Notes under the pieces: generated by a model
Seen by the model: only the letters and a program-made list of their open reading frames with translations
What the model was told of the DNA's origin: nothing
Databases searched by the model: none
Made by a program: the position numbers and the translations under genes
Shown here: piece by piece, positions 2,328 to 8,505 of the stretch
Position numbering within the stretch: the stretch's first letter is position 1
Layout: each line of letters starts with the position of its first letter
Assembly: GCA_013154145.1 (NCBI GenBank)
Contig: JAADDC010000063.1
Coordinates: 1-25,446 of the forward strand
DNA: 25,446 nucleotides
Source: Candidatus Iainarchaeum sp.
GTDB lineage: Archaea > Iainarchaeota > Iainarchaeia > JAADDC01
Direction of reading: 5' to 3'

Positions 2328-2915
2328 GTGGCCCTGCTGATTTCCTCCCCCCAGGAGTTGAGGAAGGTCGTGGACGAGGAGATCGCCCCGGAGCTCTACG
2401 AGTACGTCCGGATGGGCGGCATACTGAGGGTGGAGGGAAGGGGAGAAGAGCTGAGGGTCATCTACCCCAGCAGGGAAATGATAAGGAAGCGGTTGAACGA
2501 GCTGAAGGAAAGGGAGAAGACCATCATCGCCGAGATGTCCAAGCTCAGGAGATTGGAGAAGAGGGGGAGCCCCCTGGACTTACTGAGAATAAAGCACCGG
2601 ATACTTCTCTTGGTGGACAAGGACTACAGGGAGCTGGCGGAGCTGGTGGACGCCGAGAGGCTTTTGAGTGATAAGAGGGGGAGGAAGATTGTGGAGGAGC
2701 TCCAGAGGAGCAAAGAATACCGGGAACGGATCCGGGAAACCCTCAGGGAGAGCCCCGTTTATAGGAATCGCCGCTTCGGGGAATTCGTGGAGAAGGTGGA
2801 GGAAGTAAAAGGTAAGTTGCTGGGTGAGAGGTACAGGAAGCTTGAGGAGTCGCTGGAGAGGGTCAGGAAGGAGATGGAGGTTCTCCGGAGGCTGCAGAGG
2901 TGGGTGAAGGGGTAG
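2328..2915 (+). CDS. Hypothetical highly charged coiled-coil protein (195 aa)
   Basis: E/K/R-rich helical sequence with codon style like its neighbours; TATA upstream; its TAG overlaps the GTG of hel308 (TAGTG). Confidence 0.7.
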   Translation: MALLISSPQELRKVVDEEIAPELYEYVRMGGILRVEGRGEELRVIYPSREMIRKRLNELKEREKTIIAEMSKLRRLEKRGSPLDLLRIKHRILLLVDKDYRELAELVDAERLLSDKRGRKIVEELQRSKEYRERIRETLRESPVYRNRRFGEFVEKVEEVKGKLLGERYRKLEESLERVRKEMEVLRRLQRWVKG

Positions 2916-5065
2916 TGGACCCGGCGAGGCTCGTTCTCGAGAGGAATCGCTACGAGGACTTCAACCCGGTTCAGAAGGAAGCTTTGAAGGCTGGTGTCAC
3001 CGAGGGCGTCAACCTCGTTGTGGCGTCCCCCACCGCCTCGGGCAAGACCACCATAGCGGAGCTGGCCATGGTTGCCTCGATCCTCCGGGGGAAGAAGGCC
3101 GTCTACACCTCCCCCCTCAGGGCCCTGGCCGCCGAGCACTACAGGGAGTTCGCCCGGAAGTACCCAGAGTTCAGGGTGGCCCTCTCCATAGGCGACTACG
3201 ACTCCAAGGACGCACACCTCAAGCACTATGACGCCATCTTCACCACCTACGAGAAGCTGGACTCGCTCATAAGACACAGGGCGCCATGGCTGCCGGACGT
3301 GGGAGTACTTGTCGTCGACGAGGTGCACAGCATCGACTCGGACAGGGGGCCCACCCTGGAAGTGTTGCTCACCCGCATGAAGTCCTTTGATATCCAAATA
3401 GTGGCCCTCTCGGCCACCATCCCCAACGCCGAGGAGATAGCCGGCTGGCTGAGGGCAAAGCTCGTGGTCTCCAACTGGCGGCCCGTGGAGCTCGTAGAAG
3501 GTGTCTACTACGATGGCGTCGTGAGGTTCAACAACGGCGAAGAGCTCCGTTTCTCCAGCGAAGAGGAAATCATAGAAGACGCCCTAAAGAGGGGGAAGGG
3601 CGTGCTCATCTTCGCCCCCACGAGGCGCTCTGCCATGGCCACCGCCAGAAAACTCAGGGAGATAACCAAGAAGTACGTGAGGGGGAGAACTCCCCTGAGG
3701 AGCCTCGCGGAGAGGGTGCTGAACGCCCTGGAATCCCCCACGGCACAGTGTAAAGAGCTGGCCGAGGACATACTCCACGGCGTTGCCTTCCACCACGCGG
3801 GTCTCGTCCAGAAGCAGAGGGAGGTGGTGGAGGAGGGCTTCAGAAGCGGAAAGATAAAGGTGGTGGTGGCCACGCCCACGCTGGCCGCCGGCGTCAACCT
3901 GCCGGCCTTCCGGGTCATCATCACTTCGTTGAGGAGGAGCGAGGGCTTTTACAGCAGGGAGATCCCCGTGAGGGAGTACAAGCAGATGGCGGGGAGGGCC
4001 GGCCGGCCCCGGTACGACGAGAGGGGCGAGGCCATCATCATAGCCCGCACGCCCAAGGACGCCGAGCACTACTTTGAGAAGTACGTGATGGGGGAGCCCG
4101 AAGAAGTTTATTCCCGCCTGTCCTCCTACAGGGCCATACGGTTCCACACGCTGGGGCTCATAGCGGACCGAACTGTGAGAAATCGCGACGCCCTCCTGGA
4201 CTTCTTCGCCAGCAGCTTCTTCTTCTATCAAAGCAAGGACGTGGACAGGCTCGAGGAGCTCCTCTCGTCGGCGGTCCTCGAGCTGGAGCTCTGGGAGATG
4301 ATCAAGGACTTCGAGCCCACGAGGCTGGGGAGCCGCGTGGCCTCCCTCTACATTGATCCCGAGACGGGGAGGATGTTCTACGATTTCTCCCGGAGGCCAA
4401 AGCTCGGCGAAGTGCCCGTGCTCTTCCTCATTGCCTCCTCCGTGGAGCTTTATCCGTACCTGCCGGTGTCGAGGAAGGAGGAGATGGAACTCCTGATGAT
4501 GGCCGAGGAGATGAAGGAGGAGCTCCCCGTGGACTTCGAGGAGGCCCTCAACGACATACACTTCCTCAACAGGTTCAAGCTGGCACTTTTACTATCCAAG
4601 TGGGTGAACGAGGCGGACGAGGACGAGATACTGAAGGAGTTCGGGGTCTCGCCGGGGCAGCTGAGGGGTATCATTTCCATTGCCGAGTGGCTGGCCCACT
4701 CCCTGGGGGAGATCGCCAAGGTGGCGGGCAGCGGAGCCGTCTCCGTGTACGCCAAGAAGATGGAGGCGCGGATACGGCACGGCGTCAAGGAAGAGCTGCT
4801 CCCGCTGGTAGAATTGAAGGGCATTGGGAGAAAGAGGGCCCGAAAGCTCTTCAACGCTGGCTTCACTTCCCCGGAGAAGATAAAGAGGGCCGACCCCGTG
4901 GAGCTGGCCAAACTCCTGGGACCCAAGGTAGCCCTTAATATTCTCAAGCAACTTAAGGTTAAGGTGGGGGACGAGGTGAAGGAGAGGATAAGGAAGGTGT
5001 CCCCCGCCGAGCAGACGACCCTGGAGGTGTTCATGGGTGGAGCCCCTGGAGATACTGAGGAGTGA
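2915..5065 (+). CDS. hel308: Hel308/Hjm (Ski2-like SF2) DNA helicase
   Basis: Q motif FNPVQ, Walker A SPTASGKT, PLRALA, DEVH, LSAT, HHAGL, TPTLAAGVNLPA, QMAGRAGRP, C-terminal HhH (LKGIGRKRARKLF). Start at GTG 2915 after GGTGAAGGGG. Confidence 0.95.
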   Translation: MDPARLVLERNRYEDFNPVQKEALKAGVTEGVNLVVASPTASGKTTIAELAMVASILRGKKAVYTSPLRALAAEHYREFARKYPEFRVALSIGDYDSKDAHLKHYDAIFTTYEKLDSLIRHRAPWLPDVGVLVVDEVHSIDSDRGPTLEVLLTRMKSFDIQIVALSATIPNAEEIAGWLRAKLVVSNWRPVELVEGVYYDGVVRFNNGEELRFSSEEEIIEDALKRGKGVLIFAPTRRSAMATARKLREITKKYVRGRTPLRSLAERVLNALESPTAQCKELAEDILHGVAFHHAGLVQKQREVVEEGFRSGKIKVVVATPTLAAGVNLPAFRVIITSLRRSEGFYSREIPVREYKQMAGRAGRPRYDERGEAIIIARTPKDAEHYFEKYVMGEPEEVYSRLSSYRAIRFHTLGLIADRTVRNRDALLDFFASSFFFYQSKDVDRLEELLSSAVLELELWEMIKDFEPTRLGSRVASLYIDPETGRMFYDFSRRPKLGEVPVLFLIASSVELYPYLPVSRKEEMELLMMAEEMKEELPVDFEEALNDIHFLNRFKLALLLSKWVNEADEDEILKEFGVSPGQLRGIISIAEWLAHSLGEIAKVAGSGAVSVYAKKMEARIRHGVKEELLPLVELKGIGRKRARKLFNAGFTSPEKIKRADPVELAKLLGPKVALNILKQLKVKVGDEVKERIRKVSPAEQTTLEVFMGGAPGDTEE

Positions 5066-7160
5066 CGAGGAGAGGAGGGCCATCATAGGCAGGAAGAAGA
5101 GCCTGTTCAGGAAGAATGGCTTCAAGACGGCTTTATATATCGGAAAGATCGAGGAGGAGGGCCCCCTCTACGGCTACGACCTCTACATGGATGCGCTGCT
5201 TCCCCACGTGGTCTTCGTGGCCGGTGCCCGCGGCAGCGGAAAGAGCTACACGCTGGGCGTCATAGCCGAGGAACTGGCCGAGAAGAACCCCTATGTGGGC
5301 GTCCTCATCATCGATCCCATCGGCATCTTCTGGTCCATGAAGCTGCCGAACAGGCAGGAGGAGGAGATCGAGAAGCTGGCCGAGTGGGGCCTGACGCCAA
5401 AGGGATACGACAACGTGGAGGTCTACGTGCCCAAGGGCATGGCAGACCGCATACCGCCCGAAACCTACGACAAGGTCTTCTCCCTGAAGCCCTCCATGCT
5501 CACCACCGACGACTGGGTGTTGACCTTCGGATTGGATCGATTTTCCCCGGCGGGACTGCTCCTGGACAAGGTCCTGGAGATCGTAAGGGAAAAAAGGGGA
5601 GACGACTACGGCCTTGAGGATATCATAGAAGTTTTGGAAAACGAGGAGGAGCTACTGGACAAGGAGAAGGGCTTCAAGAAGGAGACCGTGAGGGCCCTGC
5701 TCTCCCGCTTCTACGCCGCCCGCAACTGGGGCATCTTCGACAGGGAGGGAACGCCCCTCTCGGAGATCATCCAGAAGGGGAAGGTGAGCATACTGGACAT
5801 CTCCTTCCTGGAGGAGAGTGTGGGGGCCCTGGTCATCGGCATCATGGCCCGGAGGATACTCCAGGCCCGGAAGCTCATCACCCGCTCCGTGGCGGCGGAG
5901 CTCCTGAAGCTCTCGGAGAGGGAGAAGCGGGAGGTGGACATCCCGCCCACCTGGCTCATCATCGACGAGGCCCACACCCTCATCCCGGCGGGATCCCGGA
6001 AGACCGCCGCCACGGACCCCCTCATTGAGTACGTGAAGCAGGGCAGGAGGCCCGGCTGCTCCCTGGTCTTTGCCACGCAACAACCCTCTGCCATAGACAG
6101 CAGGGTCCTCTCCCAGCTGGACATACTCATCGTCCACAAGCTGGTCTTCGGCGAGGACGTGAAGGCCGTGGAGAAGAGGATGCCCACGATACTGCCCAAG
6201 GAGTACAGCGGCGTGAGGATGAGGAGGTTGCCCGTAGGCGTGGCCATCATAGGAGACAGGGAGGACTCCACTTCCCGGGCCTTCCTGGCGCGGATACGTC
6301 CCCGGAGGAGCCAGCACGAGGGCCGGGAAGTGGCCGTTGACGAGAAGGTTAGCGTGGAGGTCCCCGAAGAAGGGGAGGAGGTGGAAGAGGTGAAGAAGGA
6401 AAGGAAGGAGGAGAAGCTGAGGCGTTCCTTCGTGGTGAACGTCACGGAGGACAGGGCCAGGAAGATCATGGCCAGTCACGGCAGCTCCTTCTTGAGGAGG
6501 ATACTGGGGGGCGGAGGCAACGTAGTAGATCTAAAATTGAAGTTCGTTCCCGTCTGGGAGGTGACCTTCGCCTACTACAATGCCCCCAGGGGATCCAGCA
6601 AGCGGGTGGCCTACATCGACGGCTACGAGGGGGAGTTCATCCACTACAAGGACGGGAAGATCGTCTTCTCCAAGGGGCTGAAGTACCTCTACAAGCTCTC
6701 CCGGAACCAGAGGAAGTTGCTCCTTTTCCTGAAGACCCACCCGGGCTCCACGCTCTCCGAGATCGTGGCCCGGGCCAAGGTGCCCGCCGCGGTGGTAGAA
6801 AAGGAGCTGGAGCTCCTGAAGCAGGCAGGGCTGGTCAAGGAGGAAGACGGCCGCTACTACACGCCCCTGGAGATCGAGCTACCCCTCTCCCCCGAGCACT
6901 CCCTCATACCCTCCATGAAGGAACTGCTGGTGACCGAGACGAGGATAGAGGACGAGGAGATACTGCCCTACAACTTCAAGGAGGACCGGGTGGCCGAGAT
7001 ACTGCGCTCCATATGGCCCGGCGTAGTCCCCCGGGAGGTGGAGCCCATCTACAGGCCCGTCTGGGTGGGGATAGTCCTCAGGGGAGGGAAGAAGTACAAG
7101 GTCATCGTGGACGCCATCAGCGGCGTGGTGGAAAAGGAGATCCCACTGGTGGAAGCATGA
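5037..7160 (+). CDS. HerA/FtsK-superfamily (DUF87/COG0433-type) ATPase lacking a HAS barrel, with C-terminal PepSY-like - winged HTH - PepSY-like region
   Basis: Walker A GARGSGKS, IIDPIG, Walker B IIDEAH, arginine-finger region QGRRPG, ATQQPS. The C-terminal ~250 aa has two PVW...D(G/A)xxG repeats flanking LSRNQRKLL...TLSEIV...VEKELELLKQAGLV. SD GGAGGTG at 5023-5029. Confidence 0.85.
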   Translation: MEPLEILRSDEERRAIIGRKKSLFRKNGFKTALYIGKIEEEGPLYGYDLYMDALLPHVVFVAGARGSGKSYTLGVIAEELAEKNPYVGVLIIDPIGIFWSMKLPNRQEEEIEKLAEWGLTPKGYDNVEVYVPKGMADRIPPETYDKVFSLKPSMLTTDDWVLTFGLDRFSPAGLLLDKVLEIVREKRGDDYGLEDIIEVLENEEELLDKEKGFKKETVRALLSRFYAARNWGIFDREGTPLSEIIQKGKVSILDISFLEESVGALVIGIMARRILQARKLITRSVAAELLKLSEREKREVDIPPTWLIIDEAHTLIPAGSRKTAATDPLIEYVKQGRRPGCSLVFATQQPSAIDSRVLSQLDILIVHKLVFGEDVKAVEKRMPTILPKEYSGVRMRRLPVGVAIIGDREDSTSRAFLARIRPRRSQHEGREVAVDEKVSVEVPEEGEEVEEVKKERKEEKLRRSFVVNVTEDRARKIMASHGSSFLRRILGGGGNVVDLKLKFVPVWEVTFAYYNAPRGSSKRVAYIDGYEGEFIHYKDGKIVFSKGLKYLYKLSRNQRKLLLFLKTHPGSTLSEIVARAKVPAAVVEKELELLKQAGLVKEEDGRYYTPLEIELPLSPEHSLIPSMKELLVTETRIEDEEILPYNFKEDRVAEILRSIWPGVVPREVEPIYRPVWVGIVLRGGKKYKVIVDAISGVVEKEIPLVEA

Positions 7161-7732
7161 GGGAGTTCAACTACGTGGAGTTACTGCCCCGCCGGGGAGT
7201 GATAGCCGTCCTGGGCAAGGACGTGGAAGAAAAAATAATGAGGGCCGCTGCCTACGCCCGCGAGGAAGGCAAGAAGTTAAAGGTCGTTCCCCTGAACCCG
7301 AGGCAGGCAGAGCTCGCCCAGAGGCTGAACATCCCCACCGTCCACGGCTACCCGGACTACTTCTACGTGCTGCTGGACTTCGAGCCCATGGAGAACCTCT
7401 TCACCGTGGGCAACTGCGACTGTCCCATGCTCCTGAGGCTCTACGAGATGGGGGCCGAGAAGACGGTGGTGCTGCTGAGGAGAAAGTACCACACGGTCTC
7501 CGTGGAGTACAGCACGTACCTCTCTCATCTCATCGAGCCCATTATTTCCCTCTACGGGGAGATCGTGGCCCGCAGGGAAAACCCCTTTGGCCATAGGGTG
7601 GTGGACATCGTCCCCATCGAGGAAGATCCGGAAGAATTGAGGAGGTTGCTCAAGGAGGTTCCCGGGGTCGTGGAGGTGGGGATACTGCCCATAATCCCCT
7701 ACCGCAAGATCGTCCTCAAAAGCTCCCGGTGA
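7157..7732 (+). CDS. Ribose-5-phosphate isomerase A-fold protein with degenerate active site
   Basis: KVVPLNPRQAELAQRLNIP and FGHRVVD...DPEELRRLLKEVPGVVEVGI align with RpiA (VPTS.QA..LA...IP; DNGNFIID...DP.....L..IPGV.E.G). The GTGST, DGADE and KGxG motifs are absent. ATGA overlap with the ATPase stop; the track's 7013 start is spurious. Confidence 0.7.
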   Translation: MREFNYVELLPRRGVIAVLGKDVEEKIMRAAAYAREEGKKLKVVPLNPRQAELAQRLNIPTVHGYPDYFYVLLDFEPMENLFTVGNCDCPMLLRLYEMGAEKTVVLLRRKYHTVSVEYSTYLSHLIEPIISLYGEIVARRENPFGHRVVDIVPIEEDPEELRRLLKEVPGVVEVGILPIIPYRKIVLKSSR

Positions 7733-8505
7733 GAGGAGCAGGGTATCTGCTCGAAGAAGCGGAGCTCCCCGTCGAAGAGGGCGTAGCGGACACCGTCCCT
7801 GTAGTAGCCTCCAGTATCATGGCAGTGGCCGAAGAGCACCGCCACCCTTCGATACAGTCCCCTTCGCTTTCCCCGGAGCTCGTGGGGCGAGTGTCCCTTG
7901 AGGAGGAATAGATCCCTTTCCTCCAGGGCTTTTTCAACGGCGGATAGCTTCCAGAGGGATGGGTTATCCACGCTGACACCACGGAGTGATGTGGAGAACG
8001 GGTCCGAGTCGCTCCAGACGATCTGGAACTCCAGGGAGGGGGTGACCTCCACGCGGGGCAGCGAGCGGATCACATTTGACGGCAGGAAGCCGTGGACGGC
8101 CAGCAGGGGAGGAGCGTAGTAGATCACGGGGAGCAGCTCGTGGAGACGCTCGTAAAGGAGCAACTCAGAGGGGGTCAGGAACCTCACCACGTCGTAGGGA
8201 TAGACAGGGCCCACGTATCGCGGCGACGAGGGGCTTCCCACCTCGTGGTTCCCCCTGAGAAGTATAGCTCCCTCCAGGAAGAGCTCCAAGACCCCCTGAA
8301 TGGTTTCCCGTTGGTGAATCCCCCTGTCGGCGTAGTCGCCGAGAAATATCACCCTGTGGCCCGTTTCCAGGAGCTCCCGGGCGAGGGGGATCACGGAGGG
8401 GTCGCCGTGGAGGTCCCCCACGAAGAATGAAGGAGCGGAGGATTCCACCACGAGCTTGGGGAGCTTCCTTGCCTTCTCTATGGCCTCCAGGAGTAGGTCC
8501 TCCAC
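7699..8505 (-). CDS. PPP-family (PP1/PP2A-like) Ser/Thr protein phosphatase, calcineurin-like metallophosphoesterase
   Basis: GDLHG, GDYADRG, LRGNHE, AVHG, WSD and KGH motifs in correct order; 3' end overlaps the RpiA-like gene by 34 nt. Confidence 0.85.
   Translation of the reverse strand: MEDLLLEAIEKARKLPKLVVESSAPSFFVGDLHGDPSVIPLARELLETGHRVIFLGDYADRGIHQRETIQGVLELFLEGAILLRGNHEVGSPSSPRYVGPVYPYDVVRFLTPSELLLYERLHELLPVIYYAPPLLAVHGFLPSNVIRSLPRVEVTPSLEFQIVWSDSDPFSTSLRGVSVDNPSLWKLSAVEKALEERDLFLLKGHSPHELRGKRRGLYRRVAVLFGHCHDTGGYYRDGVRYALFDGELRFFEQIPCSSHRELLRTILR

Follow-up and report, generated by a model that had tools for sequence, protein, structure and literature searches.

The subject of this work is a gene for a protein that resembles ribose-5-phosphate (R5P) isomerase A (RpiA) in an archaeon of the class Iainarchaeia, Candidatus Iainarchaeum sp. 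It lies on contig JAADDC010000063.1 of assembly GCA_013154145.1, of which positions 1 to 25,446 of the forward strand were analysed; this whole stretch of 25,446 nucleotides is called the window here. The assembly that holds it has 543 kb and is 81% complete. The gene and its surroundings are as follows.

7157–7732, + strand: gene for the RpiA-fold protein P0001 with its catalytic motifs lost (translation, homologues, hhalign, model and structure match)
7157–7160, + strand: ATGA overlap, the ATG start of the RpiA-like gene with the TGA stop of the HerA-like gene (read from the sequence)
5037–7160, + strand: gene for the HerA/FtsK-like DUF87 ATPase P0002 with a C-terminal winged helix (Pfam DUF87, HerA_C and MarR_2)
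2900–5065, + strand: gene for the Hel308-type helicase P0003, the first motor of the same-strand cluster (Pfam and NCBIfam)
2328–2915, + strand: orf195, first gene of the cluster, with no Pfam match
7699–8505, − strand: convergent metallophosphoesterase gene whose 3' end overlaps the 3' end of the RpiA-like gene by 34 nt (7699–7732)

The open reading frame at 7157–7732 is free of stops on translation and encodes 191 residues. A longer frame from the ATG at 7013 was rejected as the gene; the homologues all start at MREFNY/MKEINY. The GC content at third codon positions (0.84) is within the range of the 17 neighbouring genes, and the codon-bias match of 0.34 falls between their values of 0.20 and 0.54. 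The intact frame, the overlap with the ATPase gene and the normal codon style were already reported in a preliminary description of this DNA, and all three are seen again here.

For comparison, 41 related genomes were used: 16 of the window's order and 25 from 14 other families of the class. The order comprises family f1 with genera g1 and g2 and family f2 with genus g3, and the window belongs to g1.

Few traces of RpiA are recognised by the standard family models. Pfam PF06026 gives 18.3 bits (cut-off 26) and NCBIfam TIGR00021 gives 15.2 bits (cut-off 126.4), both only at residues 145–178, which is the C-terminal PGVVE.G block, and the best match of the RpiA-like profile to sequences of the PDB has an E of 0.001. 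Alignment by hhalign of the 23-member family profile with the RpiA-like family of the relatives gives a probability of 97.4% and an E of 1.2e-11 over 179 aligned columns (residues 7–186). AlphaFold, given only the ten closest homologues, yields a model with a predicted local distance difference test score (pLDDT) of 69, and the top 35 Foldseek matches of this model are all RpiA, the best with an E of 7e-10. The model from an 86-row alignment has a pLDDT of 95.1 and a predicted template modelling score of 0.90. Foldseek matches it to RpiA structures with template modelling scores of 0.78–0.82, and VIA matches 191/191 residues to 1uj4 with a Z of 19.3 and a root-mean-square deviation (rmsd) of 2.8 Å. 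The next fold families by VIA, namely the DeoR C-domain, eIF2B subunits and ribose-1,5-bisphosphate (R15P) isomerase, reach a Z of only 8–9. A language-model atlas also places RpiA as the nearest cluster at 0.75, which we treat as a lead only. Because of the hhalign, Foldseek and VIA results the likeness to RpiA is well beyond chance, and the modelling confirms a predicted full-length, two-domain RpiA fold. The end-to-end RpiA alignment of the preliminary description is thus upheld, and its structural check, that RpiA be the best match, comes out with RpiA first in both Foldseek and VIA. A match to P0019 (3389 aa, E 9.7e-6 in a representative search) was discarded as spurious, since this is an ankyrin-repeat/STAND protein.

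The motif positions were read within one alignment against the canonical RpiA rows of related genomes, which show GLGSGST, V.TS, DGAD, KG.G....EK and DESK. Following the RpiA literature, we take Asp81, Asp84, Lys94 and the catalytic base Glu103 (E. coli numbering) to be the functional residues. Four stretches of the window's protein occupy the places of these motifs.

7205–7225, + strand: residues A17–V23, AVLGKDV, where the canonical RpiA rows of the alignment have the phosphate loop GxGTGST
7286–7297, + strand: residues V44–N47, VPLN, at the place of VPTS (alignment), with P45 invariant across the family
7376–7387, + strand: residues D74–P77, DFEP, at the place of DGAD, with the Asp81 equivalent kept as D74 and the Asp84 equivalent now P77
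7406–7438, + strand: residues V84–R94, VGNCDCPMLLR, at the place of KGxGGAxxxEK (alignment with canonical rows)

Only G20 is conserved of the phosphate loop, and the places of the glycine loop and of the Ser/Thr phosphate loop carry charged residues (KDVEE). In the fourth stretch Lys94-Gly-x-Gly is replaced by V84–C87, VGNC, with Val for Lys94, and Glu103-Lys104 by L93-R94. The place of Lys121 is occupied by Y111. As remnants of the canonical site only D74 and, at the Lys104 place, the basic R94 are left. The former active-site residues vary among g1, g2 and g3, and the residues common to the whole order (P45, Q50, E117 and P169) are all structural. The replacements AVLGKDV, VPLN and VGNC and the missing EK noted in the preliminary description recur in this alignment, and its LDFEP proves to be the DFEP stretch shifted by one residue.

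A loss of this kind could belong to a decaying gene, and the relatives speak to this point. A word-indexed search found 10 homologues with 54–76% identity, and a small number of more remote ones came from an exhaustive profile search. The profile of the RpiA-like family matches 16/16 genomes within the order and 0/25 outside it, and the frame is intact in all 16, which are genomes of 0.4–1.0 Mb. Among ten g1 proteins 46 columns are invariant. The ratio of nonsynonymous to synonymous substitution rates (omega) was obtained by our own Nei-Gojobori count; most pairs have a synonymous distance (dS) above 1.5, so the four least saturated pairs (dS 1.0–1.2) were used. For the RpiA-like gene the two g1 pairs have omega values of 0.29 and 0.23 and the two g2 pairs 0.10 and 0.03; the HerA-like gene has 0.13, 0.10, 0.05 and 0.03 in the same four pairs. 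Identity between g1 and g2 is 32–36% for the RpiA-like protein and 53–72% for the block neighbours, with only orf195 (29–34%) equally fast. The RpiA-like gene is thus under purifying selection, which is looser than that of its neighbours in g1. The earlier statement that this is no decaying pseudogene agrees with these values, and the dN/dS and sister-genome comparisons proposed with it give an omega well below 1 and orthologues throughout the order.

The origin of the protein is indicated by the RpiA genes outside the order. RpiA homologues above the Pfam threshold are present in 25/25 genomes outside and in 0/16 inside. The 30 RpiA genes of those 25 genomes fall into two kinds. Type 1 is canonical RpiA and occurs in five genomes only; in genome G033 it is fused to a domain of the family of orotidine 5'-monophosphate decarboxylase and HUMPS (L051, 297–1401, + strand) and looks like the RpiA-hexulose-phosphate-synthase type. 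Type 2 is present in all 25, as a single copy in each, with Pfam scores of 84–142 bits, above the cut-off, at the following loci.

L013, 1348–2028, + strand, and L008, L010–L012, L016, L018 and L036–L050: type 2 RpiA paralogues of related genomes

The type 2 proteins carry an altered site themselves. They have [ST][SGN] for TGST and [DE]F[AV]D for DGAD, which puts Phe at the Gly82 place, the glycine loop is lost, and KG.GG....EK is replaced by KR.S.S..RDK with a one-residue deletion and with Asp at the Glu103 place in 59/59 rows. Their invariant residues are S..RDK, KTE.GN, VPTS and [DE]F.D. In public records they are annotated as 'ribose 5-phosphate isomerase A' of Diapherotrites. RpiB is found in 14/25 of the outside genomes and never together with type 1, and 19/25 hold RpiB or canonical RpiA besides type 2. 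Since so many genomes also hold a standard isomerase, type 2 is probably not the housekeeping R5P isomerase. At 14 of 20 loci from nine families (L064–L083, ±5 kb) the type 2 gene follows hisS downstream on its strand, at a distance of 0.1–4 kb. This linkage seems to be old, with variable insertions, and is broken in the window's order, where hisS is on other contigs.

Several observations connect the window's protein with type 2. First, the distributions are complementary, type 2 in 25/25 outside against 0/16 inside, the window's family in 0/25 against 16/16. Second, derived characters are shared: the one-residue gap in the glycine loop is present in 23/23 family rows (V84–R94 in the window's protein) and in 59/59 type 2 rows and in none of type 1, and further ones are an aromatic residue at the Gly82 place (F75 in the window's protein), a Ser before the [DE][KR] pair, and PGV.E (P169-G170-V171-x-E173 in the window's protein). 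Third, the genera form a graded series. Genus g3 retains K...S...EK, which corresponds to Lys94, Glu103 and Lys104, together with the Asp84 equivalent. Genus g2 retains S...DR, with SVFADR for the SLVRDK of type 2, and both genera keep parts of the motifs S-x-x-R-D-K and K-T-E-x-G-N. The window's protein has neither motif, reading C89-P-M-L-L93-R94 and R-E-N-P-F-G, and g1, with D74 and R94 only, is at the end of the series. Fourth, in the tree the RpiA-like family forms a single clade (support 0.999) nested in type 2, and its stem measures 2.06 substitutions per site. Its root-to-tip distances of 3.6–4.3 compare with 1.16 for type 2, an acceleration of about 3.5-fold. Because of the complementary distribution, the shared derived characters, the graded series and the tree, we consider that the window's protein probably descends from the type 2 paralogue, has lost catalysis and is still under selection. 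This descent was missed in the preliminary description; the parent paralogue, present in every searched relative, had an altered site already.

Some points weigh against this view. The nesting inside type 2 has a support of 0.51 only and the branches are long. All genomes are metagenome-assembled and incomplete (68–94% complete), so absences mean 'not found'. The 86-row alignment contains rows of the RpiA family, so that the detail of that model is partly borrowed from them, and the family-only model is poor precisely at residues 75–112. In addition, D74, E76, R94, R108, Y111, T113 and E117 are invariant within g1 and the site region is polar; to judge from this residue pattern, a remodelled catalytic or ligand site may be present in g1.

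In the history that we propose, the type 2 paralogue would have left its ancestral site downstream of hisS in the window's order and accelerated about 3.5-fold there, and the remaining active-site residues would have been lost stepwise, in g3, then g2, then g1. Isomerisation of R5P by the window's protein would have been given up, as its fold, frame and purifying selection lead us to infer, and the protein would have been retained because its fold, and not the old chemistry, is needed, in the simplest case for binding a protein or a ligand. Within the family, the RpiA-like gene would be co-transcribed and translationally coupled with the Hel308 and HerA-like ATPase genes, and for this reason their products would be the first candidate partners.

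The pathway setting fits a loss of the need for R5P isomerisation, with erosion of the site afterwards. Transketolase is found in 0/16 genomes of the order against 16/25 outside, phosphoribosyl pyrophosphate (PRPP) synthetase in 1/16 against 20/25 and RpiB in 0/16 against 14/25. Neither canonical rpiA nor rpiB was found in the window's genome or in the order genomes searched, which answers the earlier call to look for an intact rpiA elsewhere in the genome. The order has retained R15P isomerase, a form III-like RuBisCO and AMP phosphorylase, the last of which is encoded in the window. Genome G004 of genus g1 has PRPP synthetase without a recognisable source of R5P.

A different role would be that of an accessory subunit or regulator of a DNA machine made of Hel308 and the HerA-like ATPase, in which the fold serves as a protein-binding module and the gene overlap fixes the proportion. 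The genes of orf195, Hel308, the HerA-like ATPase and the RpiA-like protein are on the same strand and each overlaps its neighbours. In all g1 and g2 genomes the RpiA-like gene directly follows the HerA-like gene with an overlap of 1–14 nt, preserved despite the low protein identity of 32–36%, and Hel308 precedes. HerA-like orthologues occur in 41/41 genomes searched. In four other orders the HerA-like orthologue lacks both Hel308 and an RpiA-like gene within 5 kb, and outside the order the HerA-like and RpiA-like genes are far apart, for example by 300 kb in a closed genome. The RpiA-like gene thus appears to have come to the motor genes from the ancestral hisS neighbourhood seen at 14/20 loci of other orders, having moved behind the ATPase gene in the ancestor of family f1 and stayed there. 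As a lead from gene order, the kept position may indicate co-expression with the HerA-like gene, which does not imply proof of a partner.

Other features of the locus count against a DNA-machine subunit. Genera g1 and g2 share one gene order over the whole 12-kb block that runs from AMP phosphorylase to rpoH, so that the adjacency of the RpiA-like and HerA-like genes is not specific to this pair, and short overlaps join most same-strand neighbours within the window. The g3 orthologues are in unrelated contexts, in one genome with secY, an S49 peptidase and a DHH protein, in the other among a prenyl synthase and a DNA methylase. The protein is acidic (isoelectric point about 5.4) and its net charge gives no hint of nucleic-acid binding. 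A co-fold of the HerA-like ATPase with the RpiA-like protein gave a score of 0.00 with controls not run, and counts neither for nor against binding. We judge such a subunit to be unlikely. Of the coupling to DNA motors claimed in the preliminary description, the overlap stands, kept across g1 and g2, and the collinear block and the g3 contexts leave the coupling itself weakly supported. A bolder form, which we regard as quite doubtful, would make the RpiA fold a dedicated, stoichiometric subunit of an undescribed complex of Hel308 and the HerA-like ATPase near the cdc6 origin region of ultra-small DPANN archaea; type 2 would then have had an essential role outside pentose-phosphate metabolism that survived the loss of the site. 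A defence island was considered and rejected: the HerA-like ATPase and Hel308 match the PADLOC models HerA/mad8 and HamB, but both belong to the core gene set of the class, and PADLOC gives no defence-family match for the RpiA-like protein or orf195.

The protein might also still be an enzyme, with isomerase or a related activity on another phosphosugar in a rebuilt site. The six residues D74, E76, R94, R108, Y111 and T113, invariant within g1, are compatible with this, as are the Lys94, Glu103 and Lys104 equivalents of the g3 members and the type 2 parent, which, given its invariant S, R, D, K and E, looks catalytic. The three genera, though, differ in their site residues, and the place of the general base is a Leu in g1. 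Furthermore, charged KDVEE replaces the glycine and phosphate loops, and only structural residues are shared order-wide. An activity of this kind is rather improbable.

According to the preliminary description the protein could be a sugar-phosphate sensor, reporting pentose-phosphate status, that is, the route of AMP phosphorylase, R15P isomerase and RuBisCO, to the helicase and the ATPase. The salvage route does exist in the order, and ligand-sensing non-enzymes of the fold superfamily (eIF2B subunits and the DeoR C-domain) are the next structural matches. With the residues of the phosphate-binding loop lost, the site residues different among the genera and no pocket conserved order-wide, this sensing is not supported. 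Nor is the proposed link to AMP phosphorylase, which is a separate gene three genes away from the RpiA-like gene and is not at the locus in G004; nothing ties a ligand state to the motors. We consider the sensor very improbable. Least credible of all is a functionless rpiA relic heading for deletion: the catalytic residues are lost, the gene is among the two fastest-evolving of the block and the pathway partners, one PRPP synthetase excepted, are not found in the order genomes, but the frame is intact in 16/16 small genomes, omega is well below 1, 46 columns are invariant in g1 and codon use is normal.

Taken as a non-catalytic descendant of type 2, the protein can be compared with known systems. 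RpiA (EC 5.3.1.6; PF06026; 1uj4, 3ixq and 1lk5) has the same two-domain fold with a Z of 18–19 and an rmsd of 2.8–3.0 Å, and shares the C-terminal PGV.E.G block and the P.E(V) strand, of which E117 is invariant in 86/86 aligned sequences. In contrast to RpiA, the window's protein is below the family cut-offs, has the phosphate loop and the equivalents of Asp84, Lys94, Glu103 and Lys121 all replaced, and is about 35 residues shorter with two deletions of about 6 and 15 residues. It resembles type 2 in the loop deletion, the aromatic residue at the Gly82 place and PGV.E, and differs from it in falling below the Pfam cut-off, in evolving about 3.5 times faster and in being encoded behind the HerA-like ATPase gene instead of hisS. 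Arabidopsis RPI4 (At5g44520) and other RPI4-type proteins of the green lineage are likewise RpiA homologues without the catalytic residues. RPI4 is a eukaryotic plastid paralogue of independent origin without an operon context, and it occurs alongside active RPIs; in the window's genome, by contrast, the search turned up no active isomerase. The wider isomerase fold is well known to be reused without catalysis: eIF2B alpha, beta and delta and the C-terminal sensor of DeoR share the Rossmann-like phosphosugar isomerase core, but they belong to other sequence families and are far more distant (Z 8–9 against 19, about 125–145 residues matched).

Our literature searches returned nothing specific on an archaeal RpiA pseudoenzyme or on RpiA of Diapherotrites. 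New here, with the plant precedent in mind, is a stepwise catalytic loss that is archaeal and orthologous, not paralogous. Also new are the recognition of the Iainarchaeial 'RpiA' of every searched genome as a distinct paralogue and the operon position of the RpiA-like gene. Metabolic reconstructions of Iainarchaeota/Diapherotrites take 'RpiA' as evidence of the pentose-phosphate pathway, and the name has been given to a paralogue whose site is altered; in the window's order, a vent order, that site is gone entirely, and elsewhere the paralogue mostly stands beside RpiB or canonical RpiA. The steps from canonical RpiA via type 2, g3 and g2 to g1 make a clean natural series in which an enzyme would have become a non-enzyme while selection persisted, in genomes that shed whatever is of no use. 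Should the protein indeed act together with Hel308 and the HerA-like ATPase, an unstudied DNA machine of DPANN archaea would become accessible through it.

Some minor features of the locus vary among the genomes. The metallophosphoesterase gene is at the 3' end of the RpiA-like gene in part of g1 only and is absent there in g2 and G004, and in G004 both orf195 and AMP phosphorylase are absent from the locus. The HerA-like ATPase has a short form of 690–740 aa in the window's family. In other orders its orthologues have 860–1058 aa, with 70–250 extra N-terminal residues and a longer linker, for example at these loci.

L060, 5369–8224: longer HerA-like orthologue
L061, 5134–8310: longer HerA-like orthologue
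L062, 5015–8026: longer HerA-like orthologue
L063, 4579–7158: longer HerA-like orthologue

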